DNA from: an uncultured Gammaproteobacteria bacterium
Lineage (GTDB): Bacteria > Patescibacteriota > Patescibacteriia > VMEV01 > CAYQCH01
Reading direction: 5' to 3'
DNA length: 64,000 nt
Assembly (NCBI GenBank): GCA_964503955.1
Contig: CAZDCG010000001.1
Coordinates: 382,864-446,863 of the forward strand
The notes beneath the pieces were generated by a model. The model searched no databases and was not told the origin of the DNA. It was given only the letters and a program-made list of their open reading frames with translations. Below are positions 1,221 through 56,645 of this stretch, piece after piece; position 1 is the stretch's first letter; every line of letters begins with the position of its first letter. A program made the translations under genes and the position numbers.

Positions 1221-2114
1221 TCAGGCTCTGAAGGGCCTGGCGATCAGCAGCGTCTTTTCATCCGTATGGTCGCCCATGGTTCGGATGATGTACTCGCGGA
1301 TCTCATCTTCGCTTCCAACGCAGATGAGCTCGCGGAAAATACGGTCGTTGAGAACAAAGGGCATGGCGCCGTCGCTGTAGAGCACGAGCGCGTCGCCCGC
1401 TTTCAGCTTCTCAATGCCGGTTCGGACATAATTCATGGCCGAAGGCTCGCCGGTGAGAACGCCAAAACCTCCCGGCTGCCCGTCGTTTCGGTTGCGGAAG
1501 TCGCGCCGCACGCGAATGAACCGCTGTTGCAGGCCGACTTGGCCGACGGATGGGAAATACGGCCGCGCGGGCGTTACCTCGTCAGGCGTATGCCAGAGAA
1601 GCTCCGCTTCCGGCGAGATCCTGGCCACGCCGCAGTCTCCAATGAAGCCGTAAACGAAACGGTCTCCATCGATCATGGCGGCGCTGGCCACGGTGCCCGC
1701 GTAATCACCCTCAAGGTAATCACCGCGGCCAAGTCCGAGCTCGCTGTTGAGCGCGGCAATCGCACGGTTCGCCTTCTCAAATGCCTGCCGGATTACCTCC
1801 TGCGAGGGCGATGCCTTCGCAAGCAGCTCTGCGGCGACGTGCACAGCCATGTCCGCGGCCATGCGAGCCGGCGAAGGATGCGGGTACTCCTGGTTGCCAG
1901 ACACAAACCTTGTCACTCCGTCAGCAACCACCATCACGAGCCCCTCCTGAAGGCTCGCGTCTTCGCTCTGTTTCTTTGGTCCCGTTACCGGATCCCAGGC
2001 CAATGACAAGAATTCCACGTTCTTCTGACCTCGTACCCCCCAGAAGAGGTTTGCGATCCATGCTTTGAGCATAGGCAAGGCAGCTTTGATGATTTCATCA
2101 GAGCGCCTGGCCAT
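1221..2114 (-). CDS. PP2C-family (SpoIIE-like) serine/threonine protein phosphatase
   Basis: PP2C metal-binding motifs are present (VMVVADGVTR, GDCGVARI, VLYSDGA). Confidence 0.7.
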   Translation of the reverse strand: MARRSDEIIKAALPMLKAWIANLFWGVRGQKNVEFLSLAWDPVTGPKKQSEDASLQEGLVMVVADGVTRFVSGNQEYPHPSPARMAADMAVHVAAELLAKASPSQEVIRQAFEKANRAIAALNSELGLGRGDYLEGDYAGTVASAAMIDGDRFVYGFIGDCGVARISPEAELLWHTPDEVTPARPYFPSVGQVGLQQRFIRVRRDFRNRNDGQPGGFGVLTGEPSAMNYVRTGIEKLKAGDALVLYSDGAMPFVLNDRIFRELICVGSEDEIREYIIRTMGDHTDEKTLLIARPFRA

Positions 2115-2697: not shown

Positions 2698-3459
2698 TTA
2701 GGCTTGAACGAAGAGCTGTTCCCAGCCTTCTTTGCTGCCGTTCATCCTGATCTCAAAATTATCTGAATAGAGTTTGATCGTCTCTTCAATTTGCGCTTTG
2801 ACTTGCTCTGCTTCGCAATTATCCGCAAATGCCGGCTCGCCGACAAAGTCAATGATGCGGACACCTTCTTCATAGTGCACGTTTTCAAGGGTAATGCCAT
2901 GCGAAATCACAGAATTGACCAGTCCCTCATCCTGATAGGCAGCCTTCTTTGTCACAAGAAGCTGCACGATAGCGGTTGCCAAATCGCTTTGCGATTTCTC
3001 AAGTTCGACGGTAACCGGAACGAGAAGCGCGTCGCATGACAAGGAAAAGACTGCATCTTTTCCTTCGTATTCCCCTGCTTTGCCGACAAGAAAAAAGGCA
3101 ATGGAATCCTCATCAACTTCTGCTTCAAAGTCTTGCAGACGTTTTACGCCTGTTTTTGACTCCTCTTCATTTTGTTCATGATCTTCTTCACGGACAGTGT
3201 CCTGCTTCTCCTCTTCTCCGGCGCGGCCCATTCCATCCTGGGCATTGTCCGTTTCTTTTTCCTCTCTATCCTCATCATTATTCTTCTCCTCCTCTTCTTT
3301 CACGTTGGCAGGCGGGGCTTCTTTGCGCGGCGGTGTCTTTGTTTCGACAGCAGGTTGCTTCTCCTCATCGGGAACAACCGGAGGCTGGTAGCGGCATGAT
3401 GCTCCCATTAGAGCGAGAACAGAGAGCAGCGCGATTCCCAAAAACGAACGTTTTTTCAT
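2698..3459 (-). CDS. Lipoprotein with an acidic low-complexity linker and a C-terminal globular domain
   Basis: Signal peptide with a lipobox-like LMGASC. A roughly 100-aa E/D/K-rich linker follows. The C-terminal domain is possibly GerMN-like, which is uncertain. Confidence 0.6.
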   Translation of the reverse strand: MKKRSFLGIALLSVLALMGASCRYQPPVVPDEEKQPAVETKTPPRKEAPPANVKEEEEKNNDEDREEKETDNAQDGMGRAGEEEKQDTVREEDHEQNEEESKTGVKRLQDFEAEVDEDSIAFFLVGKAGEYEGKDAVFSLSCDALLVPVTVELEKSQSDLATAIVQLLVTKKAAYQDEGLVNSVISHGITLENVHYEEGVRIIDFVGEPAFADNCEAEQVKAQIEETIKLYSDNFEIRMNGSKEGWEQLFVQA

Positions 3460-7618: not shown

Positions 7619-8263
7619 ATGGCAACTGCCACAGCAACCGCTCAAGCGGAAGACACAAAAGACGCGCGCGTGCGACGCTATGAATTGCTCGCTATCGTGC
7701 CGAACAAATATACCGAGGATGAAATTCCTCAGATGCAAAAGACCATTGGCGCGCTCGTTGAAAAAGTCGGAGGGGAAACCGTAAAGGAAATCAATTACGG
7801 CAAACGGCGCCTTGCCTATCCGATCAAACACAATCACTACGGATACTACCTGCTCAGCCATTTTGATCTCACCTCCGGCCAGGTAAAAGAACTCGACGCG
7901 TACCTGCGCGTGCAGGATGAAATCATCCGTTATCTGATCACCTTCGCCCTGCCGGAAGGATCCGTGCCAAAAGAAGCAGGCGACCTGCGGGCACAGGAAG
8001 AACCAAAGCGCGAAGAGAAAACGGAAGACAAACGCAGCGCGAAGAAACCTTCCATCACCGACGTACAGGCAACAGACGAAGAACGCAAGAAAATGGCCAA
8101 AGGAACCGCATTCGATCTTGAAAAAGAACTGGGCGTTACCGCGGAAGAGGCGAAAAAATCCCTTGAAGAAAGCGGGAAGGAAAAATCAAAGAAAGACGAA
8201 AGCGTTGATCTTGCAGGGTTGGATAGCAAGCTTGACGAGATCATGGGAGACCTTGAAAAATAG
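7619..8263 (+). CDS. rpsF: 30S ribosomal protein S6 with a long charged C-terminal extension
   Basis: The S6 core is RRYELLAIV...INYGKRRLAYPI. AGGTGGA sits 6 nt upstream of the ATG at 7619. About 110 aa of K/E-rich tail follow the core. Confidence 0.8.
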   Translation: MATATATAQAEDTKDARVRRYELLAIVPNKYTEDEIPQMQKTIGALVEKVGGETVKEINYGKRRLAYPIKHNHYGYYLLSHFDLTSGQVKELDAYLRVQDEIIRYLITFALPEGSVPKEAGDLRAQEEPKREEKTEDKRSAKKPSITDVQATDEERKKMAKGTAFDLEKELGVTAEEAKKSLEESGKEKSKKDESVDLAGLDSKLDEIMGDLEK

Positions 8264-9862: not shown

Positions 9863-10056
9863 GGACATTGTGGTACACTGAAGTTAGGAGGTATAAAGGA
9901 AGCCTCCCCTTATGAAAAACCCGCTTATCATCTGGACATGATCCTGCTGATAGGTGGGTTTTTCTCTTTTTCAGGAAAAACCGCTCTGGCACGCAGCATG
10001 GGTTTTAGAGCCGTGTTTCCTGAATGTTCTTTCAACCCTCAGAGAAAGGATTGCAC

Positions 10057-10755
10057 ATGGTCCCCCATCCCCATGGGTCCTGGGAGCATGTCAACCCGCG
10101 TGCTCGCAAGATCTTTCGCCGCGGCCAGGAACGGCGCCGGCGCAAGGATCAGAGCGCGGCGCACCGCCTTCGCAAGGGCAAGCATGATGTCCGCTACTCC
10201 TTCGAGATCAGCTCCGAAGACGGACCTCTCTCCTTTCTCTTCGAGGAGATCAGCCGGATCACGCTCCACGCGCTGACCTCGCGCAAGATGATCGACAAGG
10301 TTCGCCGCCGCCAGGCGCGCGATATCCTGCCGCAGACCCTGAAGCTCAGGATCATTCGCCGGCGCACGGAGTCTGGCGCGTACGTGATCATCCCCGGACA
10401 GCAGTACGACGACTTCTGGGTTCCGATCCGTGAGTCGGAGTGCCGGGTGCTTGATGCCTGGCAGTGGGTGATGCGCTATGAGCCCTGGCAGCAGAAGATG
10501 CTGCTGGAGGTGAAGAGCATCTACTCCAACATCAGCCGGGCTCAGCTCGTCTCTCTGATCACTCGCGGCGAAACCCGCTACTACTCGCCGCGCGTGCGGG
10601 TCGTCATCCTCATCGAGGTCGTCGGACAGAGCTTCAATGCTCATCCGCTCAATCCCGTTCCTCTGCCGGACAACGATCCGCAGAACAGCCTGGACGACGG
10701 CCGCCTCGAGATGGACGCCGCACTGGAGAAGATCGGCGCCGAAATCGCGGCCTAA
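10057..10755 (+). CDS. Hypothetical protein encoded in a locally GC-rich segment with a basic N-terminus
   Basis: ORF 10024-10755 with an ATG at 10057. GC and GC3 are far above the surroundings. A GC hairpin lies at 10758-10795. Confidence 0.4.
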   Translation: MVPHPHGSWEHVNPRARKIFRRGQERRRRKDQSAAHRLRKGKHDVRYSFEISSEDGPLSFLFEEISRITLHALTSRKMIDKVRRRQARDILPQTLKLRIIRRRTESGAYVIIPGQQYDDFWVPIRESECRVLDAWQWVMRYEPWQQKMLLEVKSIYSNISRAQLVSLITRGETRYYSPRVRVVILIEVVGQSFNAHPLNPVPLPDNDPQNSLDDGRLEMDAALEKIGAEIAA

Positions 10756-10869: not shown

Positions 10870-11430
10870 CTACCCATTGACGGAAGACAGACTATAATGA
10901 GCTAAAAACTCGTTTGTGAATTCTTGAATACGTTGTTCAAAGTTCGCTATAGGAATAAGATTACTTGATTTTTTAGTCAGTTTATACGAGGCGTTCGCAC
11001 CTTTTTCCATAGTGACTAAATTCCCCGCTTTTCCCGTAACCACGTCAGCCTTAGACCATACTCCGAAATAGAGTTCGTTTGGAGTTACCCCTAAACACAA
11101 GACAGCATCATATTCTCTATGATAGCGTATATGATTGAACTGAAAATTACCTCCGGTATCTTCTGTTGCTGTCTTAAGTTCATATTTAATACCATAAAGT
11201 TGAATATCCCATGAACTTTGTTTTGCTCTTGAATTGGCCTTATTCAACGGGAAATCACATGGAATTGAAAGCACATTACAAAGGCCCTCAATAAAATCCT
11301 GTCCAACGTTACCGACTTTTGTATTTGAAACAGTTTTGATTCCAATAAAATCACCCTGTTTCCATTTAGGATTGTCAACATTTTTCTTTAATGCCTCTAC
11401 GAACAACTGTTTATAATCAAGATTTTGCAT
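10870..11430 (-). CDS. Putative type II restriction endonuclease (partner of the adjacent MTase)
   Basis: AT-rich ORF overlapping the MTase stop by 14 nt. No other function is recognisable, so the call rests on position only. Confidence 0.45.
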   Translation of the reverse strand: MQNLDYKQLFVEALKKNVDNPKWKQGDFIGIKTVSNTKVGNVGQDFIEGLCNVLSIPCDFPLNKANSRAKQSSWDIQLYGIKYELKTATEDTGGNFQFNHIRYHREYDAVLCLGVTPNELYFGVWSKADVVTGKAGNLVTMEKGANASYKLTKKSSNLIPIANFEQRIQEFTNEFLAHYSLSSVNG

Positions 11431-12355
11431 GTGTTGGAAGATGATCTAGTAAGGCCAACTTGATATGGTACATCGAAATATGACGACAATTATGGGTTGC
11501 AAGATTACTATACTTGTCCCAGTTAATACCACTTAGTATTTTTTTCACTTTTCTTTTTTCTTTTTTTATGATGATTCCATATCCGCAAACATATTTCACT
11601 TTTGAAAAATCACTCACCAGCACGGGCGGTTTGTTGAAATATGTCCTTTGCAAAAAAGTATTGCATTTACTCATCTTTTTCATTCCACAGAGTCGTTCTT
11701 TTCTTAGATCAACTGTAAATAGGTCAATGTACTCATCAGCCAAACTCAAATCCGGTAATGCTGCGGCTTCACCTTTTTTCCAAATCTGCCAAAGCGTATT
11801 CACTTGTTTTGTCTCTCCATTTGGTTGAACGAAAACATCCCCAGAAAGAATTTGAGAATGTACTAACCTCATTCCTAGTACTCTATTTTTGGGACTACCT
11901 TTACCGTCACTCTGAAACGACATAGGGAGAATGAAACCAACATAGTCACAAAATTCTGCTGCACGATTCAAAAAAGCTAAAGCTAGCCACCCGCGATACC
12001 CAAAGGGAGGATTGCCTATAGCTACACAAGGGCGGTTGTCTGTATGATTGGGTTCCCAAGTAAGGAAATCTTGTTGGATGTATTCTCTACAATAATTTTC
12101 AACGTCAATTCCTATACGTTGTTTTTTGGGTAACAGATTGTAAAAAGATCCAGTCCCTGCACTTGGCTCTATAATTTTATAATTGGTTAAAATTGTTCCG
12201 TCCATTTTGAGGTATTTTTGGAATGAATTCCAACAGTACTCCGCGACTTTGGGCAAGGTATTAAATTGATCGAGACCAACTTCCCTTCCACGAACCCAGT
12301 CCGGGATACGATTAGAGCTGGCCCATGCCTTATCTCTAAGTTTGATTGCATTCAT
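11417..12355 (-). CDS. N6-adenine-specific DNA methyltransferase (gamma-class)
   Basis: Motif I EPSAGTGSF precedes motif IV GNPPFG, the order seen in M.TaqI-like gamma-class enzymes. AT-rich, about 38% GC. Confidence 0.8.
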   Translation of the reverse strand: MNAIKLRDKAWASSNRIPDWVRGREVGLDQFNTLPKVAEYCWNSFQKYLKMDGTILTNYKIIEPSAGTGSFYNLLPKKQRIGIDVENYCREYIQQDFLTWEPNHTDNRPCVAIGNPPFGYRGWLALAFLNRAAEFCDYVGFILPMSFQSDGKGSPKNRVLGMRLVHSQILSGDVFVQPNGETKQVNTLWQIWKKGEAAALPDLSLADEYIDLFTVDLRKERLCGMKKMSKCNTFLQRTYFNKPPVLVSDFSKVKYVCGYGIIIKKEKRKVKKILSGINWDKYSNLATHNCRHISMYHIKLALLDHLPTHAKS

Positions 12356-39678: not shown

Positions 39679-40122
39679 TCAGAGCTCAGATCCATTAAAG
39701 AATGATTTTCCGGTTTCAACTTCATCCATGAATTCATTCACCCATCCAACGCAATCCAATTCCCTCTTCGCCTCTTCAAAACTCATCCAGCGGTAATCCT
39801 GATGTTCATGACTGATCTGGACTTCCTGATGTTCTGCTTTGCCAAGAAAGAGAAAGGAAACGAATTCCACATTTGGATCAATGGCTCCGCGGATAACTTT
39901 ATAGCGCAGAAATTTTTCAATATGCACATCAAGCCCTGATTCCTCTTTGCACTCGCGCAAGACTGCTTGTTCAGGGGTTTCCAGAAACTCTTTTGAACCG
40001 CCCGGGAAATCCCATTGATTGGCGCCAAATTCCTCATTTTTTCCACGCTGTAAAAAAAGAAATTGTCCGTGCTCATTTCGGACAACGCACACGCAGGTGG
40101 CGATTGTCTTGTACTCGCGCAT
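39679..40122 (-). CDS. Nudix hydrolase
   Basis: Nudix box GGSKEFLETPEQAVLRECKEESGL. The start is MREYKT at 40122. Confidence 0.6.
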   Translation of the reverse strand: MREYKTIATCVCVVRNEHGQFLFLQRGKNEEFGANQWDFPGGSKEFLETPEQAVLRECKEESGLDVHIEKFLRYKVIRGAIDPNVEFVSFLFLGKAEHQEVQISHEHQDYRWMSFEEAKRELDCVGWVNEFMDEVETGKSFFNGSEL

Positions 40123-40202
40123 AAAGAGAGAAAGGCAATTCAATGTACTGAAAGTAGGCAAATTGTACGGAAAATACGTGAGTTCGTCAAAGATAGGCTT
40201 CC

Positions 40203-40560
40203 AAGAACCCCCTCATCAAGTCCATGACTCTAGACAGTTGATCCCTGTCCCCCTTTTCTAGGGGGAAGAAGTCGCTTCTCCCCTCTTGAAAAGAGGGGCT
40301 GTGAGAGACGTGGAGTAAAAATCAACATGCTTGGGGGAGTTCTGGGCTTGGTAATCCCTAATTTTATCCTCATCCTTATCTCTCATTACTCCCCAACTCC
40401 TCCACCTAATTCCTAAGTCCTAATTCTTTGAGCGGCTTTATGACATTAGCATCTTAAAGAATTAGGGGAAGGAATTAAGAATTAGGGAAATAAAAATACG
40501 CCCATGAATAGGCGCTGCTTTATTCGTAAATTTGTATTCGATTCGCACATTCGTACCCCC
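40203..40560. repeat. Composite cluster of palindromic intergenic repeats (families B, C and D)
   Basis: Contains cccccttttctaggggg / cccctcttgaaaagagggg hairpins, the cctaattcctaa...ttaggaattagg hairpin, and a copy of the groES-groEL spacer element ttcgtaaatttgtattcg. Confidence 0.65.
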
Positions 40561-40659
40561 ATCACTTCTCTATAAGTAACATCTGTTCCTTACAAAGAGG
40601 TGTTCTGCGCCGCGCTCCGGAAAGGAGGCGGCGCAGAAGCGCTCAAGGTTCTCGCGAAC

Positions 40660-41565
40660 CTAGAAGTCGCTGGCGATCTCGCGGTACTGCAGCAGCTCGT
40701 AGAGCATCCGCGTGACCTCGTCGAAGATCACCTGCGGGTTGTCGGCCGGATCGGTGAGCGGCGGAGCCATGAGGTAGGCAGGCTCCAACCCCTCCTTGAG
40801 GTAGTTCAGCATGCGGAAGAGCCGCTGGCAGGTGAAGACCTGCCGCACGCCGAAGGGCTGGTGGCTGACCAGAGCCAGCGGGGTGTCGCTGTCCCCCATG
40901 AAGTCGACGAGCGAGGCGATGGTCTCGTCGGCCCGGGCGGGCTTGCCGTCCGGCTGGTTGTGCGCGACCCGGAACATCAGGTCCAGGTGCGCCGGGAGGC
41001 TCAGCTTGAGCGCCGCGAACTTGGCGGCGTCGCGCTCGGTGCCGCCCACGGGCACGACACCGGACATGATCTCCTGCTCCTCCTTGTTGAGCGGACGCTC
41101 GCTGGTCAGGAAGAGCATGGAGCCCACCCCGTTGTTCAGGAACTTGATCGCGAAGCGGCCGCGGTGGACCATGGACTTCGCGGTCGAACCCAGGATCACG
41201 AGGAGGCGCTCCTGTCCGTCCTCGGGCATCCCGTGCGGCTCGAGCAGGCCGAGGCGGTCGAGCGCGGTCATGAGCTGCACGCGGTTGACCTCGCGGCCGG
41301 CCATCTCCCAGCGCGCCTGGCCGGGCTTGCGCTGCAGCGGCTGGGTCTGCTTGACCACGGCCGAGAGTTCGCGCGAGGCGAGATCCACGCCGAAGGCCTG
41401 GAAGAAGTCCAGGACCGGGTCGGTGACGATGTCGCCGGCCAGCCAGAGGTTGACATTTTCGCTGATCGAGAACGGCTTCACTCTACATTCCCCCTTTTCG
41501 GGTGATTCCAGGGCACCATGCCAAGGAAATCGTGGCATTTTCACTGATTTTTCACTCTTTGTCAA
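40660..41565 (-). CDS. Hypothetical protein encoded in the high-GC island
   Basis: 301-aa ORF with about 65% GC and strong GC3 bias. No confident family. Confidence 0.45.
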   Translation of the reverse strand: MTKSEKSVKMPRFPWHGALESPEKGECRVKPFSISENVNLWLAGDIVTDPVLDFFQAFGVDLASRELSAVVKQTQPLQRKPGQARWEMAGREVNRVQLMTALDRLGLLEPHGMPEDGQERLLVILGSTAKSMVHRGRFAIKFLNNGVGSMLFLTSERPLNKEEQEIMSGVVPVGGTERDAAKFAALKLSLPAHLDLMFRVAHNQPDGKPARADETIASLVDFMGDSDTPLALVSHQPFGVRQVFTCQRLFRMLNYLKEGLEPAYLMAPPLTDPADNPQVIFDEVTRMLYELLQYREIASDF

Positions 41566-41590
41566 ATCAATTCGGAATGAGTAAACAGAC

Positions 41591-41625
41591 TTGACAAAAC
41601 TGATCTTTTGTGATATTTTGAAACG
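41591..41625 (+). promoter_or_regulatory. Sigma70-like promoter for the island lipoprotein gene
   Basis: TTGACA, a 17-nt spacer, then TATTTT. AGAGGGGGGG lies 6 nt before the ATG at 41697. Confidence 0.45.
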
Positions 41626-41696
41626 TTAAACAAATACTCACTGTTCTCTCAAGCTTTTCTCATCCAGGTGCTCCACGCACAGAGGGGGGGTTCACC

Positions 41697-43502
41697 ATGT
41701 CGTTTGTCGCCAGCTTCTTTCGGTTCATTTCGCCGGTCCTCGTGGCCGGCATCCTGTCGATCTTCTGTGGGATGATGGTGCTGGGCTGCGCCAAGTCAGG
41801 CGGCCGTTCCGGCGGCGCGCCCATCAGCCCCGGCAACCCGCTCCCCAGCCCCGTGCCCCCGGCGCCGCAGGCGGACGACCACGGCGGCGATGCGGGCTCG
41901 GCTACCATCCTCACCCCCGGCACGGCCGTGACGGGGGAGATCGAGGAGCCGTATGACCGCGACATGTTCGCGGTCTGGGTCCAGGGCGGACAGACGGTGA
42001 CGTTCTCCGCGGATTCCACCAGCTCGATCGAGCTGTGGGTCCAGGAGAACGGGAACTGGACGAACTCCGCCCACGGCACCACGGCCAGCGTGCAGGCCAC
42101 GCCGACCAGCGACGGCTACATCTACTTCTACGTGGAGAACTACTCCTTCACCAACACGCCGGCGTACTCGGTCGTCGCCAGCCTCAGTGGGAACAGCACC
42201 GGCTTCAATGCCCAGGCGCTGCTGGTGAACACGGTCATGGACTGGAACAACCCGTCCAATCCGACCCGTGACACCACCCCCACCGAGCTGCTCGGCGTCT
42301 ACAAGATGGTCGCGCTCATGGACGAGACCGCGCTGCGGTCCTTCGTCCTGAACACGAGCCGGCCTCTGGACTTCGTCACGATCAACGTCTGGAATAACAA
42401 GACCGGACAGTCGGTGTCGAGGACGCTCTACGGTCCCGCCACGCGGTTCGAGTTCCGGGCATCCAGTCTGCTCGAGCTCGGCTACTGCGCCGCGGCTACC
42501 GACGAGCTCGCGATCCAGGTGATCACAGACAGCTCGCAGCTCGACGGCCAGGACGTGACTGCTTCGGTCGAGCGCATCAGCGTCTCGATCGGGAGCGGCA
42601 GCGAGGAGGACATGCTCAACAACCTCCCGCCCGCCGTCACCGTGCGCTACCGCGAACACTCGCGGCTCCAGCACACGGCGATCATGCCCCGCAGGGTCGA
42701 CGAGCGCAGCACCGATACCGTCTTCGCTGAGGTCGAGCTGGCCAATACCAGCGCGATCCACACCGCGAGCGTGTCGGAGATCAACTTCATCGACAACGGC
42801 AACAACACCGGAGTGAGCAACCTGCGCCTGGTCATCGACGGACAGACCGTCAACCTGACCGGCTCGGGCATCATCCGTGCCGACCTGTCGATGAGTCCGG
42901 TCGAGCTGAGCCCGGGCGAGGTCACGAGCTACCGCGTCCTCGCCGATACCATCGCCTCGGTCAACACCAACGTGTGGATCCAGGCGAACGGTGTGTCCAC
43001 CACCGTAGATCATGGCAGCCAAGACCTGACCATCTACGAGGGCGGCGCGCGCGACGCGTACGGCAACTTCGTCTGGTTCGGGGTCGAGTTCAACAAGGTC
43101 CTGACCATGACCCAGCGGGTCATCACCACGACCGGCCCCTTCAACGGACGTGATGTTTTCGCCGCCGACCTCATGTCAAGCGAAGATGTCAACATCCGCG
43201 GCGCCGTCTACACGCTGGTCAGCAACAACGCCCAGCTGGTCGGCGAGGTCCACCTCGTCTTCGACGGAACGAGCAAGGCGTCGACGCAGGAGAACGTCAA
43301 CAAGCTGGTCGAGCTGCCGTTCGGATGGCAGACCACCAGCTTCGAGCTCATCAGTGGCGTCTCCTACTCGTTCAACGTTCCGCTCCACCTGAACACCAAC
43401 CAGTCAGGCGACACCGTCCAGATGGTTCTGCACGCCATCCTGGACGACTGGGGGCGGGCTCACATGGTCCGCCAGACCGGGCCGTCTCACCTCGTGCAGT
43501 AG
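41697..43502 (+). CDS. Surface lipoprotein with a PPC-like (pre-peptidase C-terminal type) domain, encoded in the high-GC island
   Basis: Lipobox VLGC|AKSG and a Pro-rich linker. DHGGDAGSATILTPGTAVTGEIEEPYDRDMFAVWVQGGQTVTF looks PPC-like. High GC3. Confidence 0.55.
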   Translation: MSFVASFFRFISPVLVAGILSIFCGMMVLGCAKSGGRSGGAPISPGNPLPSPVPPAPQADDHGGDAGSATILTPGTAVTGEIEEPYDRDMFAVWVQGGQTVTFSADSTSSIELWVQENGNWTNSAHGTTASVQATPTSDGYIYFYVENYSFTNTPAYSVVASLSGNSTGFNAQALLVNTVMDWNNPSNPTRDTTPTELLGVYKMVALMDETALRSFVLNTSRPLDFVTINVWNNKTGQSVSRTLYGPATRFEFRASSLLELGYCAAATDELAIQVITDSSQLDGQDVTASVERISVSIGSGSEEDMLNNLPPAVTVRYREHSRLQHTAIMPRRVDERSTDTVFAEVELANTSAIHTASVSEINFIDNGNNTGVSNLRLVIDGQTVNLTGSGIIRADLSMSPVELSPGEVTSYRVLADTIASVNTNVWIQANGVSTTVDHGSQDLTIYEGGARDAYGNFVWFGVEFNKVLTMTQRVITTTGPFNGRDVFAADLMSSEDVNIRGAVYTLVSNNAQLVGEVHLVFDGTSKASTQENVNKLVELPFGWQTTSFELISGVSYSFNVPLHLNTNQSGDTVQMVLHAILDDWGRAHMVRQTGPSHLVQ

Positions 43503-43641
43503 ACTCCCGCTGAAACCGGCTCGATAGCCACAAGGTTTCTTCGGTGAACCAAGCACCCCCTTTCGAAAGCTTTACGCGAGTAGAAAGGGGGTCTTGTTGT
43601 TTTAGACCACCTGTTTTGTTCCACAATTTGATGACAGAAGC

Positions 43642-44727
43642 ATGGACAAGAGAATTTTCCATTCATATGGTTACCTATTGCCACGTCGGAGCGTACAAAA
43701 ACAAGCGAGGTGTTCTCTGAGCAAATGCAGGAAGTTTTTCCTGGCTGGCCTATTGTCTGTCATGCTGACGGGCTGCCACGATCACAACCATTCCCACGCG
43801 GCCGAGCGGCTGCTGATCACGGTCGACCGTGCTCCAGTCGCCACCATCCCCGAATCGGCCACTGCCCTGCTCGCGCGCTTTGACGCGACCGCCCTTGAAG
43901 AGCAAATGGCCGTGCACGAGATCCGGGTGCGGACAAGCCTTCCCACCTTCGGCGCGTTCATTACCACCGAGGAGGGGGTCGTGGGAGTCAGCCGGGAAGT
44001 TGATCCGTTCACCCAGTCTGATCCGCAGCAGGTGCGCAAGAATCTCAAGAAGCGCGTTCGCAACCTGCGTATCCTGCCGGTCGACGGGCGGACAGCCCTC
44101 TTTCGCATGGATCAGATCCGTGAAGTCCGTCAATTCAGCCTGTTCTTTAACACGCTTGGGCTCGATGACGAAGTGGTGAATTTTCAAATAACCCATATCG
44201 TCGTTTCATGGCGGGGAAAAGGCCGTGAACGCGACGGTGTGCGCGATTTGCAGTTCACGCTTCTTGTCACCGCGCCGCCCATCGTGCTCGCCGAAGCGAT
44301 CCAGCCGCTGCGCGTGCACGTTTCGCACGGAGCGCAGGAAATCCTTGCTGAAATGACACTCACCGAACTGTCCAATGAACATTCAGTGACGGTGCAGCTG
44401 GTGCAAGCCCGTCTTGATAGTCCATTGCCGACGATTTTCTACCTGACGGATTCGTTCGGGAATGTGCTGAGCCAGGGAATCTTCGACCCTGTTGATCCAA
44501 GAGCAATCTTCTTTGATCTGGGATTGGGAGGAATCTTAAGCATTGCTCCCGGGCAGGCCCGCCGCGTCTTCGTGATCGCGGATCTGACGCCCTTCCCAGG
44601 ACTCGACACACTGACGCTTGAAATCCCTCGCATCATTGTGGAGAACGACAATGGCGAGGTCGATGGCATCGACGGTCCCGTGGATCCGACCACGCGCAAT
44701 CTTGTCCAGTTCGTCAACGTGTTCTAA
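43642..44727 (+). CDS. Lipoprotein, tandem paralog A (C-terminus NLVQFVNVF)
   Basis: Lipobox LTGC. About 50% identity to the following gene over roughly 300 aa. Confidence 0.55.
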   Translation: MDKRIFHSYGYLLPRRSVQKQARCSLSKCRKFFLAGLLSVMLTGCHDHNHSHAAERLLITVDRAPVATIPESATALLARFDATALEEQMAVHEIRVRTSLPTFGAFITTEEGVVGVSREVDPFTQSDPQQVRKNLKKRVRNLRILPVDGRTALFRMDQIREVRQFSLFFNTLGLDDEVVNFQITHIVVSWRGKGRERDGVRDLQFTLLVTAPPIVLAEAIQPLRVHVSHGAQEILAEMTLTELSNEHSVTVQLVQARLDSPLPTIFYLTDSFGNVLSQGIFDPVDPRAIFFDLGLGGILSIAPGQARRVFVIADLTPFPGLDTLTLEIPRIIVENDNGEVDGIDGPVDPTTRNLVQFVNVF

Positions 44728-44899
44728 GACTAAGCCCCGTTCACCCTTTCACGAGGAAGAAGCGGGGCTTGCTGTTTATCGTCCAAAAATGGCGACGTTT
44801 TTCATGGAACAGTTGACGCGATCTCAGGCGAGCTCTAGCATAACTGATTGGCCCGATAACCGGGACAAACCATCAACCTACGATTTTGCGGAGGGATTG

Positions 44900-45928
44900 A
44901 TGCATCGACTCGTCCGTTCCTGGTGGGGTCGACAGCTGAAGCTGGTGCTCGGCTTCCACCTCTTCTTCATAGGCTGCGGGGATGAAAGACGCCATTTCTT
45001 CATCCTCAACGACGTGGTGCTCACCGTTGACCGAGCGCCCGTCGCGACGATCCAAGAAGCTCCTGCGGCACAGCTCGCCCGATTCGACGCGACCGCCCAG
45101 GCAGCCGACATTGTCATCACGCAGATGACCGTGCAGACCTCTCACCCCACGTACGGCGCTTTTATCACGACCAATGACGGCGTGGTAGGCAAGTCCATTC
45201 AGGTTGATCCGTTCACCGTGAACGATCCCGCTCAGTTCCAATTTTCCGTCCGGCAGTCGCTGCTCAACATTCAGCCGACAAATGGAAGGAACGCTCTGCT
45301 GCGGCTTGACCAGATCGGACAGGTCGAGCAAATGTCCTTGTTCTTCAACACGCTCGGCCTGGACGATGAGGTGGTGAATTTCCGCGTCCTCTCGATCACC
45401 GCCTCGAGCGCCTCATCTCCCCCAAAGGAGATCCCGCTTCCCGGGTTGAACTTCACCCTGCTCGTGACGGCCCCGCCTCTTGTCCTGGCTGAAGCCATCC
45501 AGCCGGTGCGCGTGCATGTTGCCCGCGGCGCGAGCGAAGTGCTGGCTGAAGTCGTCCTGACGGAGCTTTCCAACGAGCACAGCGTGGTACTCCAGCTCAT
45601 GGAAGCGCGCTTTGACAAGGCTTTGATCGGACTGAATCCTCGCCTGGTGGACAGTTTCGGCAATATCCTGGGTTTTGGGATCCTGGATCCGGACGATCCG
45701 CGAACGGTTTTTTTCGATCTCTCGACGGGCGGGGCGCTCTCTATCGCTCCCGGGCAGGCCAAGCGTGTCTTTGTGGCCGGAGATATGACGCTCTTTCCAA
45801 GCATCGACACGCTGACGCTTGAAATCCCCACCTTCATCTTCGAGAACGATAACGGAGAAACCGACAGCATCGACGGTCCGGTCGACCCCGCGACCAGGAA
45901 CCTGGTGCAATTCGTCAACGTGTTCTAA
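44900..45928 (+). CDS. Lipoprotein, tandem paralog B
   Basis: Start ATG at 44900 preceded by GGAGGG. Lipobox FFIGC|GDE. The C-terminus is identical to paralog A (RNLVQFVNVF). Confidence 0.55.
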   Translation: MHRLVRSWWGRQLKLVLGFHLFFIGCGDERRHFFILNDVVLTVDRAPVATIQEAPAAQLARFDATAQAADIVITQMTVQTSHPTYGAFITTNDGVVGKSIQVDPFTVNDPAQFQFSVRQSLLNIQPTNGRNALLRLDQIGQVEQMSLFFNTLGLDDEVVNFRVLSITASSASSPPKEIPLPGLNFTLLVTAPPLVLAEAIQPVRVHVARGASEVLAEVVLTELSNEHSVVLQLMEARFDKALIGLNPRLVDSFGNILGFGILDPDDPRTVFFDLSTGGALSIAPGQAKRVFVAGDMTLFPSIDTLTLEIPTFIFENDNGETDSIDGPVDPATRNLVQFVNVF

Positions 45929-46313
45929 CCGGTTCATCCACCGAGAACCCCGCTTTTCCTTCACCGGTCAGGCGGGGTTTTTGCTTCCATCTAGCGTCTA
46001 ATATCTCTATCTACCTCTAAATCTAAACACACTCTCTATCATTAACCTTCTCGATATTTAAGTACCTTTGCAATCTAGTCTCTAATCTTTGTGCCTATAT
46101 CTCTATCTCCATCTCCCCCTCCCAAACAAAAGAGCGCCCTCGCAATCGAGAACGCTCTTCGTGTTTACTTGTTTCTTGATTTTCTATCCTTTCCGAAGCA
46201 TCTGTTTGGATGAGACGCGAGAAAGGATTGAGAAGCGGAGCGATGCGTACCTATCGTACGGTGAGCGAGCATCGAAGATCCTGACGAAGCAGATCGCCAA
46301 ACAGATGCTTCGT

Positions 46314-48550: not shown

Positions 48551-48886
48551 TCACGCGCCCCTATTGGAATCCCCCCGCTCAGGATCTTCAAAGATTTCAA
48601 ACTCGCTTTTGGTCAAAGGCTGTCTCAGTTGAAAGGATCCCAGGGTTTTATCGCCCGCTGGTTCCATGTGCCGGTTTTCCACCACCCCGTATTCGGACAG
48701 GATTCTCTCCAGTCCTTCCAGCAGACTCTCGGCTGAGTCAGCACCGTTCAGCACGAGGAGGAATTTCCCGGCAATACAATCGCCTATGCGCTGCACGCAG
48801 AGATTATCCACGCTCCCTTTCTTACAAAGAAACTCATCAATCTTTCTTTTCAGATCGGGAATGGAAAAGGCCTCGAAAGACCACAT
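48551..48886 (-). CDS. Hypothetical protein
   Basis: 111-aa ORF. Together with 49002-49229 it may be one disrupted gene. Confidence 0.35.
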   Translation of the reverse strand: MWSFEAFSIPDLKRKIDEFLCKKGSVDNLCVQRIGDCIAGKFLLVLNGADSAESLLEGLERILSEYGVVENRHMEPAGDKTLGSFQLRQPLTKSEFEIFEDPERGDSNRGA

Positions 48887-49155
48887 GCAAAAGATCCCTC
48901 CTGTTAAATTCCCTCCTTTGCCAAGGTACCATGCAGAGACAGAATCGCAAAAAGATCAGCATGGAAGACCGCTCCTCGTCCGTCTTGATTATCTGCATCG
49001 CTTACGGCTTAGCTCCGACGGAATCACCGCTACCGCTCCTCTCAGATTCTTTGGCGCAGAAAAAGGCTGACAATCTGTATCCGCCGCCCTGGATCACCGA
49101 TGTTTCATCCAGTGTCACTGCCACAGCCTCATATCCCTGTTCAAGCAGCCAGGCT

Positions 49156-50577
49156 TCAAACTGCGTTCGAAGATGCTCCATGTCCCCTCCTCTTTTGCAA
49201 ATCCAGCATGGTTGCAAGCATAAAACCAAGCAGCACCCCGGTCAATCCAAGCCCAAACCAAAGCGTCCACCAATGATGTTCAAAGTAGAACATCGTGAAG
49301 AGGGAGATCATCAGTGAAAGAGACAAAGCAGCTTCAATGCGGAATGCCGGCAATCGCTTCAGCCACAGCAGCGTCCGGTAGAAAAAGGCCACGGCCAATC
49401 CAAAAAGGCAGAGGCCCGCAAGCCCCAATTCCGCCCAGACAAGCAGCCAGACATTATGTACCGGCTGATACGCGTAAAGAGCCTGCCCAGGATGCTGGAT
49501 CATGGACTCGACCACATATTGCCCCGCTCCGCTGCCTCGCAAAGGGTGTTTTTCAATGATCAAGCGAGCCGTTTCGTTCAGATCCATCCGCTCCTGGGAT
49601 GACATCACCGCAAGCCGCGATTCTGACGCAATGCGCTGCGTCCAAAGCGGGCCAAAAATCAACTGAAAGACGCAAAGAATGATTCCGCCTGCAGCCATCA
49701 ACTTCAAAACCGGTACAAAAACCGTGCTCCACGTTTCTCCTTTGCGAGCGAATAAAACAAGCGCGGCAAATCCAACGGCAAAACCAAGCCACGCGCTCCG
49801 GCTGAAGGTAAGCAGCAATCCCGAAACGGTGAGCAGAAATGCCAGCAAAGAACCAATGGATTCAATGCGCAACTGCTTGAAAAAAGCATTCCCAGCTCCG
49901 CGCAAACGGCGATACACCGAAAAGTACCAGCCTGCGGCAATCAATGCGCAAAGGGATAAAAATCCGCCCAGGATATTTGGATGCGGAAGCGAACCATAGG
50001 CCCGCAGCCATCGCTCATCAGCTGATTCAATCACGGAAACGCCAAGCTCGCGCGGATCCTGCGCGGACATGCCAAGCCAGGTGCTGGCAGGTATTTCCTG
50101 CAGAAAAAATTGCCAGAGAGCAAGCAAGCTTTGCATGACTCCGGCCAGGAGCAGAACAAGCAGCATGGCGCGGATCGGAACGGAAACCGTCATTACCATA
50201 AGCGCGAGCAAAAGCGTTTGCATGACGCGCAGAGCAAAGATCAAGCCAAGGAATGGCTCGGGCGACCAAAGAAGGGAGAGAAAGAGGAAAACCAAAAAAA
50301 GGGAAAAACAGCAAAGCACAATGCGATGTGCTTTCGCCCAGTTAACAATGTCTGAAGCATGGCTTGCGATCCAGACAATAAGCAATAAAGCAAAGAGCAG
50401 GTCCGTGGCATACAATGAGAGTCCTCCGTAAAAAGGCGTTTCAAGGGAGTATTCAGAAAAAAGATAGCGAGCCTGCCAAGGAAGCAAAAAAAGATAAAGC
50501 AGGAACCCAAGACCAAACCATCGTCTCATACCTGATTCATTCCCCGAGAGCCTGGCGATGACGTTCTTCATAAGCAT
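49156..50577 (-). CDS. Polytopic membrane protein, O-antigen ligase/polymerase (Wzy_C)-like
   Basis: About 12 TM segments and a periplasmic loop with FSRSAWLG. Confidence 0.45.
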   Translation of the reverse strand: MLMKNVIARLSGNESGMRRWFGLGFLLYLFLLPWQARYLFSEYSLETPFYGGLSLYATDLLFALLLIVWIASHASDIVNWAKAHRIVLCCFSLFLVFLFLSLLWSPEPFLGLIFALRVMQTLLLALMVMTVSVPIRAMLLVLLLAGVMQSLLALWQFFLQEIPASTWLGMSAQDPRELGVSVIESADERWLRAYGSLPHPNILGGFLSLCALIAAGWYFSVYRRLRGAGNAFFKQLRIESIGSLLAFLLTVSGLLLTFSRSAWLGFAVGFAALVLFARKGETWSTVFVPVLKLMAAGGIILCVFQLIFGPLWTQRIASESRLAVMSSQERMDLNETARLIIEKHPLRGSGAGQYVVESMIQHPGQALYAYQPVHNVWLLVWAELGLAGLCLFGLAVAFFYRTLLWLKRLPAFRIEAALSLSLMISLFTMFYFEHHWWTLWFGLGLTGVLLGFMLATMLDLQKRRGHGASSNAV

Positions 50578-51479: not shown

Positions 51480-51930
51480 CATGGATAGCAGCACGCCAGA
51501 ACCCCCTCATCATCCTTGTGATTTTATTGTTTTCTCCATCTCCCTTTTCTAGGGGGAAGGACTAGGCACGCAACCATCTTCCCCCCTCTAGAAAAGAGGG
51601 GTCGCGATAAAGATACTAAATGCAAAAACCTTCTTGGGGGAGTTCTTATTAACCCAGAACCCCCTCTTCATCTTTGTGATTTTATAGGTTTTCTCCCCTC
51701 CCCCTTTTCTAGGGGGAAGATTATCCTAATACACGCAACCATCTTCCCCCCCTCTAGAAAAGAGGGGGCGCGATAAAGATACTAAATGCAAAAACCTTCT
51801 TGGGGGAGTTCTTATTAACCCAGAACCCCCTCGCCAGGTTTACGATTTGCCAGGCTTTATCCAGTCCCCCATTTCTAGGGGGAAGAAGAAACATTTATCG
51901 GTTGAGTAGAACATGCTATAATACTGTCGC
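51480..51930. repeat. Tandem array of about 130-bp composite palindromic repeat units, left part
   Basis: About 2.5 copies of the unit acgcaaccatcttcc-cccctctagaaaagagggg-...-cttgggggagttcttattaacccagaaccccctc-...-ccccttttctagggggaag. Confidence 0.8.
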
Positions 51931-55502: not shown

Positions 55503-56645
55503 GTTAGCAAAAAATTAAGACCGATCCGTCAAATAGAGTAACAGGCAGTGTAGCGGATTTTTTCGATTTGATCAATACGAAAAAATCCGCAGACGGATCA
55601 GACATCACAGACTTCAAAGACGCGCAGATTGGTGAGAACACCCCCCCTAATTCCCAATTCCTAATTCTTTAAGCATCTTAATTGCTTGAAAGTAATTTCA
55701 AAACAAAAACGCTCCCGATCGCCGTAAAGCAATCAAGAGCATCTTTTCTTTCGTCGTGCGTGTGGAATGCCCTTTGTCGTCGGGCGTGGGGCTCCGTCCC
55801 CGCCCGACACCTTGTCGGACGCGAGGCTGCGTCTCCGTCCGACCTTTTCCACCTCAAATCCGCTACCTCTATACCCCGCTTGATTCAACATCAACCATTC
55901 TTGACCCTTTACCCGCCTCTCAAATCCGGTACCTCTATACCTCCCTCACCTAAAACCAAGGTAAGACAGGGGTATGAGCAAGATAACGGATGAGAAAAAA
56001 CCAGGCTTGAGCAAAGCTCGTGTACCTCATATCGTTTTTCGATACAAAGCGCCTGAATGAGAGGCTTGCAAAGTCATTTGCCACCTTCCCTTGCAGGCCT
56101 GCGGCAAACGGCTTCTCACGAGGCAGGGTAACGGATCCCGGTGTATCAGTTGCTCACCGGCTGCCCCGGCCATCCCGAAAGATGACACTTCAACCTAGAT
56201 TGAAATGGGGGTATTGTCAAGGCTGTTGCTGATCCCAGAACCCCCTCGCTACGTTTTCTTTTCCTCCATGCTTTATTCAGTTCCCCCTCCTGCCTGCCGG
56301 TTTACCCGCCGGAGGAGGGCAGGCAGGTTTCTAGGGGGAAGAAGAGCAGACTCCCCCCCTCTTAGGAAGAGGGGCTAGGAAAAACTTTCTAAAAGAAGAT
56401 ATCCGCTTGGGGGAGATCCTACCCTAATTCCTAATTCCCAATTCCTAATTCTTTGAGCATCTTCACCCGCGATATAAGTTTCCCGCCTGCTAAGCTTTAC
56501 AGCCTGCATAGCAAGAAGGGGCTTGATGCGCGGGGATGATGATCCGCAAGGAGGGGTGATAGCAGCAACACTGTACAATCAAAAAACCCACAGCCGATCG
56601 TCTGTGAGTCTTGAGAGCCTGAAAAGTCTGTGAGTCTGTGCACTC

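Follow-up and report, generated by a model that had tools for sequence, protein, structure and literature searches.

The window analysed here is a 64,000-nucleotide stretch of contig CAZDCG010000001.1 in which four adjacent genes between ileS and groEL, here called A to D, stand out by their high GC content, and the question raised by this locus is whether so sharp a jump marks recently acquired DNA or something else. A sequence-only reading had proposed a recent horizontal acquisition from a high-GC donor, or possibly a chimeric assembly, and had suggested that the genes encode surface-exposed proteins and may be a surface-variation module. The contrast itself is confirmed: the GC content is 0.63–0.64 at 41–43 kb and 0.55–0.59 at 43–46 kb, with flanks of ∼0.47–0.53 and a window average of ∼50%, in keeping with the ∼65% and ∼58% first reported together with a strong bias at third codon positions and flanks of ∼50%. 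At 200-bp resolution the rise sets in at ∼40.6 kb and the block ends at ∼45.93 kb, with dips inside it to 0.42–0.52 in the spacer between A and B and to 0.47 in that between B and C. The GC contents of the first, second and third codon positions (GC1/GC2/GC3) are 0.68/0.38/0.96 for A (read as a protein of 273 residues), 0.57/0.46/0.91 for B, 0.64/0.40/0.67 for C and 0.64/0.39/0.74 for D; A and B together are 65% GC. Measured against the 40 other open reading frames (ORFs) of the window, which have a mean GC3 of 0.54 (standard deviation 0.06), the GC3 z-scores of A, B, C and D are 7.2, 6.4, 2.2 and 3.4, respectively, which makes A and B atypical of their host.

The answer that we favour is that the block is probably this bacterium's version of a conserved, hypervariable surface-protein locus, which a small, Microgenomates-like clade of Patescibacteria carries in the ileS–groEL interval. 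The host itself is a member of the Patescibacteria (candidate phyla radiation; CPR). Its IleRS has several hundred relatives, the best of which (contig L006) is 70% identical; those with informative names come from Gottesmanbacteria, Microgenomates, Woesebacteria, Pacebacteria or 'Patescibacteria group' metagenome-assembled genomes and are 43–52% identical.

Gene B (41697–43502, plus strand) encodes a lipoprotein of 601 residues with a signal peptide carrying the lipobox VLGC (Cys31), a Pro-rich linker, a PPC-like domain (residues ∼55–165; 41859–42191) and three β-sandwich domains (residues ∼172–300, ∼310–440 and ∼480–595). A promoter scan, which returned six sites against 1.7 expected, places a sigma70-like promoter (TTGACA-17-TATTTT with a TG-extended −10) at 41591–41619, and a Shine–Dalgarno (SD) site, AGAGGGGGGG, which includes a run of seven G residues, lies at 41681–41690. 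The energy of its duplex with the anti-SD sequence is −10.4 kcal/mol, compared with ∼−4 to +3 kcal/mol for the housekeeping genes of the window. An intrinsic terminator (CCCCCTTTC...GAAAGGGGG followed by a T-rich tail) lies behind the gene at 43556–43603. The promoter, the ribosome-binding site (RBS), the 601-residue lipoprotein, its Pro-rich linker and the PPC-like domain had all been picked out by the sequence-only reading, and all of them hold. The run of seven G residues in the RBS (41684–41690) is of equal length across seven assemblies; such a run could in principle allow slipped-strand switching.

The domain at residues ∼55–165 of B gives no hit to Pfam PPC (PF04151) even at E ≤ 10; the gathering threshold of this family is 25.9 bits, and the best-scoring member of the B family, cluster P0019, reaches 17.7 bits with its corresponding domain, while P0021 has no score. 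The similarity to PPC repeats is nevertheless direct. In a phmmer search with B, P0013 (11 Pfam PPC repeats) and P0014 (17 repeats) are matched with E values of 1e-39 and 8e-36, respectively, and the repeats of P0013 align with residues 56–160 of B, that is with the whole domain, at 32% identity (BLASTP, 7e-8 per repeat). 'PPC-like' is therefore the right wording. An AlphaFold2 model of B computed from a nine-sequence alignment (mean predicted local distance difference test score, pLDDT, of 75) is all-β, with a signal helix, a disordered linker and four β-sandwich domains. Foldseek matches this model to integrin leg domains, the MG domains of α2-macroglobulin, ColG collagen-binding domains, fibronectin type III arrays and pilus adhesins, and the predicted fold would thus be a generic array of binding or spacer domains without an enzyme fold. 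When the B-family profile was compared with the sequences in the PDB, the only match lay in the signal peptide and linker of an unrelated lipoprotein and was set aside.

Genes C (43642–44727) and D (44900–45928) follow B in tandem on the same strand. D encodes a lipoprotein of 342 residues with the lipobox FIGC (Cys26) and has a strong GGAGGG RBS; C encodes a lipoprotein with the lipobox LTGC, at Cys45 of the long ORF, the start of which is uncertain. The two proteins are 58–59% identical and share the C-terminus TRNLVQFVNVF, so that they are indeed tandem paralogues with a common end, as first described, with an identity above the ∼50% given there. A profile built from C and D matches the B-family profile over residues 192–464 of B (hhalign probability 98.4%, E = 1e-14), and for this reason B, C and D are one lipoprotein family, with C and D as short forms.

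Lipoproteins were recognized by the lipobox [LIVMFWSTAG]2-[LIVMFYSTAGCQ]-[AGS]-C (PROSITE PS51257-type) with no charged residue in the preceding six positions. The pattern occurs in B (Cys31), C (Cys45), D (Cys26) and four of the six full-length homologues; in the remaining two, P0021 and P0019, the signal peptide ends in IGC and SGC, respectively, with an Asn at −4. Every full-length B homologue has a lipoprotein-type signal peptide. Since another protein of the window (2698–3459) has a lipobox, ...LMGASC, the host probably possesses the lipoprotein-processing pathway. Each gene of the block would be a separate transcription unit, judging from the divergent promoter-like sites of A and B, the hairpins read from the sequence behind B, C (a terminator-like hairpin at 44733–44779) and D (an intrinsic terminator, AACCCCGC...GCGGGGTT then TTTGCTT, at 45947–45986), and the promoter-like site (TTGACG-17-TAGCAT, 44813–44841) and GGAGGG RBS of D. 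None of the four proteins has a usable match in Pfam, NCBIfam, PHROGs or PADLOC, and in a word-indexed search of 5.8 billion proteins A, B and C/D match only themselves.

Homologues of B were found only by an exhaustive HMMER search with B as the query, in a cluster-level search space of 1.84 billion cluster representatives; what follows refers to the best 150 of 315 hits. They are of two kinds. Several hundred proteins match B only at residues ∼55–165, the best of them carrying 7 to 17 Pfam PPC repeats. The rest of B is matched, among the hits listed, by eight clusters (P0011, P0012, P0015, P0016, P0019, P0021, P0042 and P0055) with 22–44% identity to B in global alignments, of which P0019 and P0021 share the full layout of B including the PPC-like domain.

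It is the position of these two that identifies the locus. In contig L087, where IleRS is 68% and GroEL 78% identical to those of the window, the order is PKD–RuvA–M17–IleRS–152aa–438aa–B'(+)–170aa–GroEL, with P0021 as B'; the left flank (PKD protein, RuvA, peptidase M17 and IleRS) is syntenic with the window and the 438-residue gene is sensor-like. In contigs L091/L092 (IleRS 68% identical) the order is IleRS–B'(+)–135aa–GroEL, with P0019 as B', and the 135-residue gene of L091 is homologous to the 170-residue gene of L087. The interval between ileS and groEL thus holds a family member in three lineages (the window, L087 and L091/L092), each time in the orientation opposed to that of the genes on either side. 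A second site recurs in L088/L089, with the order FA_desaturase–B'–YgjP–DUF3298–DnaX; L086 has its YgjP side in common, and in L090 the FA_desaturase and DnaX-type genes recur. The longer homologue contigs have a CPR-type gene content (DUF5671, type IV pilin and a DUF87/TraG-like ATPase), and among the matches listed all contigs with usable flanks are of this type, with 52–56% GC, and none is a high-GC context. No family member was found at 80 IleRS loci of GTDB representatives, in two JGI metagenome scans or, for A, B and C/D, in three viral-contig scans; the family is therefore uncommon and, in the sampling available, confined to a few lineages of the CPR. Motifs conserved at cassette boundaries were sought around the genes of the B family, and the only ones to emerge were terminator hairpins common to the syntenic loci.

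Two further observations concern these homologues. At 1956–3436 of L090 the B homologue is split into P0016 (residues 173–300 of B) and P0011 (residues 344–591 of B), which is either a pseudogene or a frameshift error, the coverage of this contig being ∼1.1×. The PPC-like part of B is closest to the homologues at ileS–groEL (36% identity to P0019) and the C-terminal half is closest to P0011 (44–48% identity), from the other conserved site; B may be a mosaic.

The high GC3 of B turns out to be shared by its whole family. All nine family genes outside the window have a GC3 of 0.83–0.94 and an effective number of codons (Nc) of 33–37, with neighbours at GC3 0.55–0.77; A makes up only 2–5% and T 4–13% of their third positions, and the regions upstream of them are 39–44% GC. 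The GC1/GC2 values of B (0.57/0.46) match those of the secreted PKD protein of the host (0.56/0.48), the GC3 of which is 0.55, and the GC excess is therefore synonymous. The Nc values lie within 3–5 units of the expectation from GC3 only (Wright's curve, computed by hand), which points to compositional pressure as the cause of the codon bias and not to a preference for particular tRNAs. The claim of a recent acquisition from a high-GC donor is thus not supported for B, C and D, as their relatives have a GC3 of 0.83–0.94 in mid-GC genomes, whereas for A, which has no relatives in the collections searched, it may still hold; the sequence-only reading had itself named a high GC at the homologous loci of relatives as an argument against recent transfer, and this is what was found.

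The divergence within the family shows how old this composition is likely to be. Its members are 22–51% identical to one another, and the identity at conserved fourfold-degenerate sites is near the compositional expectation. Between L087 and L091, for example, the B homologues are 31–37% identical and agree at 0.383 of the fourfold sites against 0.385 expected, whereas the IleRS proteins of the same two contigs are 86.5% identical and agree at 0.51 of these sites against 0.35 expected, so that signal is kept there. With the silent sites randomized and GC3 intact, no amelioration is occurring in the B family, and the high GC3 appears to be a long-standing property of the family in every genome that holds it. 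Because a foreign GC3 would have decayed to the host value before the silent sites were randomized, either a force that restores G/C-ending codons or a repeated supply is needed, and such a force is far more likely than a recent independent supply of each genome from an unseen reservoir.

GC3 outliers were also sought across ∼1.4 Mb of Patescibacteria loci (GC3 ≥ 0.8, at least 0.17 above the locus median, and coding-type codon-position periodicity). The screen returned family members and two other genes, with the qualification that the homologue loci had been chosen for containing the family and the sample is not unbiased. The two others are a 209-residue ORF beside groES in L006 (3133–3762, minus strand; GC3 0.83, locus median 0.64) and a 190-residue ORF in L042 (15591–16163, plus strand; GC3 0.84, locus median 0.36).

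Gene A (40660–41481, minus strand), the most biased gene of the block (GC3 0.96, Nc 29), is of another kind. Its coding strand was judged from GC3, and the ORF is open up to 41565; the start is most likely the GTG at 41481, giving 273 residues, because this codon is preceded by the RBS AAAGGGGGAA and because two Logan gene calls give the same 273-residue product. The divergent ORF announced upstream of B is therefore present, at 273 residues instead of the 301 first assigned to it. A sigma70-like promoter (TTGACA-17-GAAAAT, 41565–41537) stands back to back with that of B (41537–41619 for the pair) in an intergenic region of 215 bp and 41% GC, and a GC-rich hairpin with an 11-bp stem (40603–40638) lies just past the stop codon. 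The protein has no signal peptide. A also gives no match in PDB sequences (phmmer) or in viral contigs, plasmids or phages (tblastn), and an AlphaFold2 model from the single sequence (pLDDT 36) was unusable and was not used. The divergent promoter and the matching codon bias suggest that A is linked to B, and the GC3 regime of the B family may extend to A as a second gene, unrelated to that family. Upstream of the block is a NUDIX hydrolase gene (39679–40161, minus strand; Pfam NUDIX, E = 1.8e-21), part of the variable ileS–groEL interval yet low in GC (0.44). Among the ileS–groEL intervals compared, it and A are found only in the window; tblastn gives no match for the NUDIX gene in the intervals of L006, L087 or L091.

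From this anatomy we propose that an N-terminal lipid anchor and a flexible Pro-rich linker would hold a chain of β-sandwich domains at the cell surface, composed in B of the PPC-like domain and three Ig-like domains and in C and D of the two central domains only. There the proteins would bind a partner cell or a substrate and so come under diversifying selection, which would explain both the fast divergence and the gain, loss and duplication of genes in the interval. B, C and D are very probably lipid-anchored, all-β surface proteins, and their most likely role is surface recognition or adhesion, in view of the anchor–linker–β-sandwich anatomy, the lack of enzyme domains, the extreme divergence, the duplication in tandem and the changing gene content of the interval. 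Ultra-small groundwater bacteria and Saccharibacteria reportedly show no outer membrane in published electron cryo-microscopy, so that a lipoprotein would be exposed in such a cell. The surface-variation module of the sequence-only reading survives in this modified form: lipid-anchored, all-β proteins at a site where gene content varies and where the B homologues outpace their flanks.

For the composition our proposal is more tentative, and we would put it at a little below an even chance: a gene-autonomous force would hold ∼90% synonymous G/C in the B family of several mid-GC genomes, over a time long enough to randomize these sites several times, with neighbours and promoters remaining host-like; mutation bias and transfer history would be insufficient for this. 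The force keeping the G/C-ending codons could be GC-biased gene conversion at a recombination-prone locus, which would fit the allele-like divergence of the family, or selection on the mRNA, through transcript stability or the avoidance of A/U-rich sites. In bacteria, recombination and the GC content of genes are reported to be positively related independently of codon selection (PMC4450053); if gene conversion maintains the excess here, this locus would be an unusually strong and local case of a process so far shown in bacteria only through a weak genome-wide trend (PMC4450053).

The strand of these genes was also considered as a cause. B, C, D and those homologues whose neighbours are oriented run against the flanking genes, on what the GC skew suggests to be the lagging strand. 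Head-on orientation has been linked to faster evolution. As the cause of the GC3 bias it was ruled out, since A shares the bias yet is co-oriented with its neighbours.

Several points weigh against the reading that we favour. The GC content falls sharply at the gene borders, which is not obviously expected of a regional process such as gene conversion; the two are compatible only under strong constraint on the promoters. The GC3 values of C and D are only moderately raised, which fits older, partly ameliorated imports as well. A has no homologues from which a long-standing bias could be read. The nearest sampled relative, L006 (IleRS 70% identical), has an empty ileS–groEL gap of 1.1 kb, and the presence of the family in other lineages could stem from repeated gains at a hot spot in place of inheritance. 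Finally, the family is tiny (eight clusters in the best 150 of 315 hits), and three homologue contigs are too short for their context to be judged.

A recent horizontal acquisition of A and B, or of the whole block, from a donor with ∼65–70% GC that uses SD sites, with codon usage still unameliorated, is a rival reading. The GC3 of 0.91–0.96 and Nc of 29–34 resemble those of genes native to high-GC bacteria; strong SD sites precede A, B and D, and most genes of the window have none; the block is absent from L006; A is unique to this population; and the window holds other outliers (a low-GC restriction–modification pair and an ORF with a GC3 of 0.82), so that transfer does happen here. We nevertheless consider it unlikely. 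There is no candidate donor: the detectable B homologues are all in mid-GC, CPR-like contigs, two of them at ileS–groEL, and the donor search found no B homologue in a high-GC context or in viral, phage or plasmid collections. The homologues have an equal GC3 with fully randomized silent sites, the excess is confined to synonymous positions, and the promoter regions are AT-rich and host-like. Strong SD sites are also found on other small accessory genes of the host, and there is no integrase, tRNA or att-like repeat.

The conserved site with divergent contents invites a different history, in which, as at a capsule or O-antigen locus, old, divergent alleles are swapped by homologous recombination in the conserved flanks from a GC3-rich pool that acquired its bias outside these genomes; one possibility for this pool is a high-GC reservoir so far unsampled, for instance the bacteria that carry these epibionts. 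In its support, the site and orientation are conserved, yet the B homologues of L087 and L091 are 31–37% identical with no residual similarity at fourfold sites, compared with 86.5% for IleRS; the content of the interval differs in every lineage and is empty in one; and B looks mosaic, with a PPC part 36% identical to the ileS–groEL type and a C-terminal part 44–48% identical to P0011. No member of such a reservoir appears among the 1.84 billion cluster representatives or the JGI metagenome and viral contigs, however, and the sampled population is nearly clonal at the locus. Swaps mediated by the flanks also need close, and hence mid-GC, donors, so that a GC3 force inside the CPR would still be needed. 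We regard this history, too, as unlikely.

Codon optimization of very highly expressed genes, with the promoter, SD sites and codon bias all reflecting translational selection, is distinctly improbable. The promoter of B is near-consensus with an extended −10, the SD sites of A, B and D are the strongest of the region and the Nc values of 29–34 are low enough to suit it. However, no shift is seen in genes for which high expression would be expected, namely GroEL (GC3 0.57), RpoB/RpoC (0.56–0.58), and EF-P, SSB and S6-like genes (0.55–0.63); the bias is near the prediction from GC3 only, unlike a tRNA-specific preference; and the most biased gene is A, which is not a surface protein.

An assembly chimera or high-GC contamination has the compositional jump alone in its favour and is almost certainly not the explanation, as the junctions are spanned by 100%-identical contigs from four separate runs, with strain variants in two more, the intergenic DNA inside the block is host-like, a host repeat adjoins A and relatives share the layout; only a systematic artefact common to all the assemblies could rescue it. 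An exact-protein look-up of B returned five contigs from the separately assembled runs SRR11843815, -16, -27, -30 and -35. The order IleRS–NUDIX–A–B–C–D–GroEL–GroES is kept in these Logan contigs, that of run -35 covering A to D, and they are 100% identical to the window over the block and both junctions; the earlier suspicion of a chimera thus falls, both junctions having been recovered independently in several runs. Near-identical strain variants are present in runs -34 and -36, with 4 and 13 substitutions over gene A and the first part of B. The strain differences (13 in L095) are too few to polarize AT-to-GC against GC-to-AT changes.

Each component of this locus is known in kind, be it a lipoprotein, a PPC-like or Ig-like domain, or a fixed site with variable contents, and the family is undescribed: literature searches found no description of the B family or of GC3-outlier genes in CPR, and no counterpart of a synonymous GC excess that stays with one gene family across mid-GC genomes. 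The closest domain-level comparison is with PPC (PF04151) and ColG, whose PPC-type module binds collagen. Residues ∼55–165 of B align over their full length with the 'DDHG...D.DWF.V...G.YY..V' repeats, and the ColG s3a–s3b structure is among the Foldseek matches. B differs in scoring below the threshold of Pfam PPC and in carrying the domain N-terminally on a lipoprotein with no protease; its other 430 residues match no described family.

As a locus, the ileS–groEL interval may be compared with the O-antigen cluster of Escherichia coli, between galF and gnd, and the pneumococcal cps cluster, between dexB and aliA, which are hypervariable and of atypical GC content and whose low-GC state is long-lived. 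By analogy, the likeness would lie in the housekeeping flanks, a content that varies among relatives, very divergent alleles and a long-lived atypical composition. The difference is that the interval here holds one to three stand-alone lipoprotein genes and no polysaccharide pathway, that the deviation is towards high GC and synonymous, and that swaps are not directly observed. The variable surface lipoproteins of wall-less or monoderm bacteria, such as the Vlp, Vsa and Vsp systems of Mycoplasma, resemble it in having tandem paralogous lipoprotein genes with their own expression signals, in their fast evolution and in belonging to a small-genome, host-dependent bacterium; no tandem coding repeats, invertible promoters or variable homopolymer tracts are seen here, and the chain is of β-sandwiches and not of repeat peptides. 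With a classical genomic island the block shares the sharp compositional contrast and the absence from one close relative, but it has no integrase, tRNA target, direct repeats or identifiable donor, and the same family with the same bias occurs at the same site elsewhere. A hypervariable surface-protein gene of a Gracilibacterium varies within a repeat region (PMC6851277), a mechanism that differs from that of the ileS–groEL locus.

In terms of method, a sharp GC jump is not evidence for recent transfer in this case, since the GC3 excess accompanies the family in every genome where it occurs. In terms of biology, Patescibacteria are generally regarded as living attached to other microbes, and the molecules of contact are little known outside Saccharibacteria; the B family at its fixed hot spot is a candidate host- or substrate-recognition module in Microgenomates-like CPR. 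The evidence comes from a handful of contigs, and the behaviour of GC3 is unusual.

The left edge of the block adjoins a copy of a host-specific intergenic repeat (40250–40500), made of palindromes and CCTAATTCC-type runs, with related copies at 55.64, 56.33–56.47 and 63.37–63.56 kb; the repeat has 11 matches in the window against 0.55 expected. A terminator scan places a terminator-like hairpin on the A side (40498–40515, minus strand) within it. At the right edge a CT/AT-rich spacer with only 7% G (45985–46135) adjoins the 3' end of groEL. Both borders, the host palindromic repeats and the low-complexity tract before groEL, are as they had been described. The repeat is composite, with G/C palindromes (tctaggggga...cccctct type) followed by CCTAATTCC/CCCAATTCC runs, and its copy at 55.64 kb spans 55640–55680; it may be a small non-autonomous element. 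No tRNA or tmRNA was found in the 64-kb window, and an Rfam scan of the window was likewise empty. Direct repeats flanking the block were looked for and not found, and as to mobility there is no integrase or att-like repeat and none of the four proteins matches any family in Pfam, PHROGs or PADLOC. The window has no second copy of any part of the block that could be the template of a diversity-generating retroelement; no search was aimed at a reverse transcriptase.

Translation signals differ among the genes of this host. Most housekeeping genes of the window have no SD sequence, as is also the case in L087 and L088, and in these two relatives several housekeeping genes have a TATAAT-like box ∼7 nt ahead of the start codon, suggestive of leaderless mRNAs. 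Strong SD sites (∼−7 to −10.6 kcal/mol) are found mostly on small or accessory genes: A, B and D, the genes at 48551–48886 and 49002–49181, and those at 7836–8294 of L087 and 5546–5953 of L091. Strong SD sites were accordingly rejected as a marker of foreign genes.

Elsewhere in the window, a type II restriction enzyme and methyltransferase pair (10870–12355, minus strand; PADLOC REase_II, 9e-9, and MTase_II, 4e-56) is low in GC (0.36–0.38; GC3 0.30–0.33), and the adjoining ORF at 10024–10755 (plus strand), which has no family match, has a GC3 of 0.82, so that opposite outliers stand side by side. The window and assembly L001 are identical except for 14 differences, all of them inside 39 bp (51667–51705), where a second, gapped alignment begins; either this short stretch is hypervariable or a repeat has caused the assemblies to differ. 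A gene for a PP2C-like phosphatase (1221–2114, minus strand) has a moderately raised GC3 (0.71), and its neighbour at 2130–2612 has an internal ATG after a GGGGGAA RBS.

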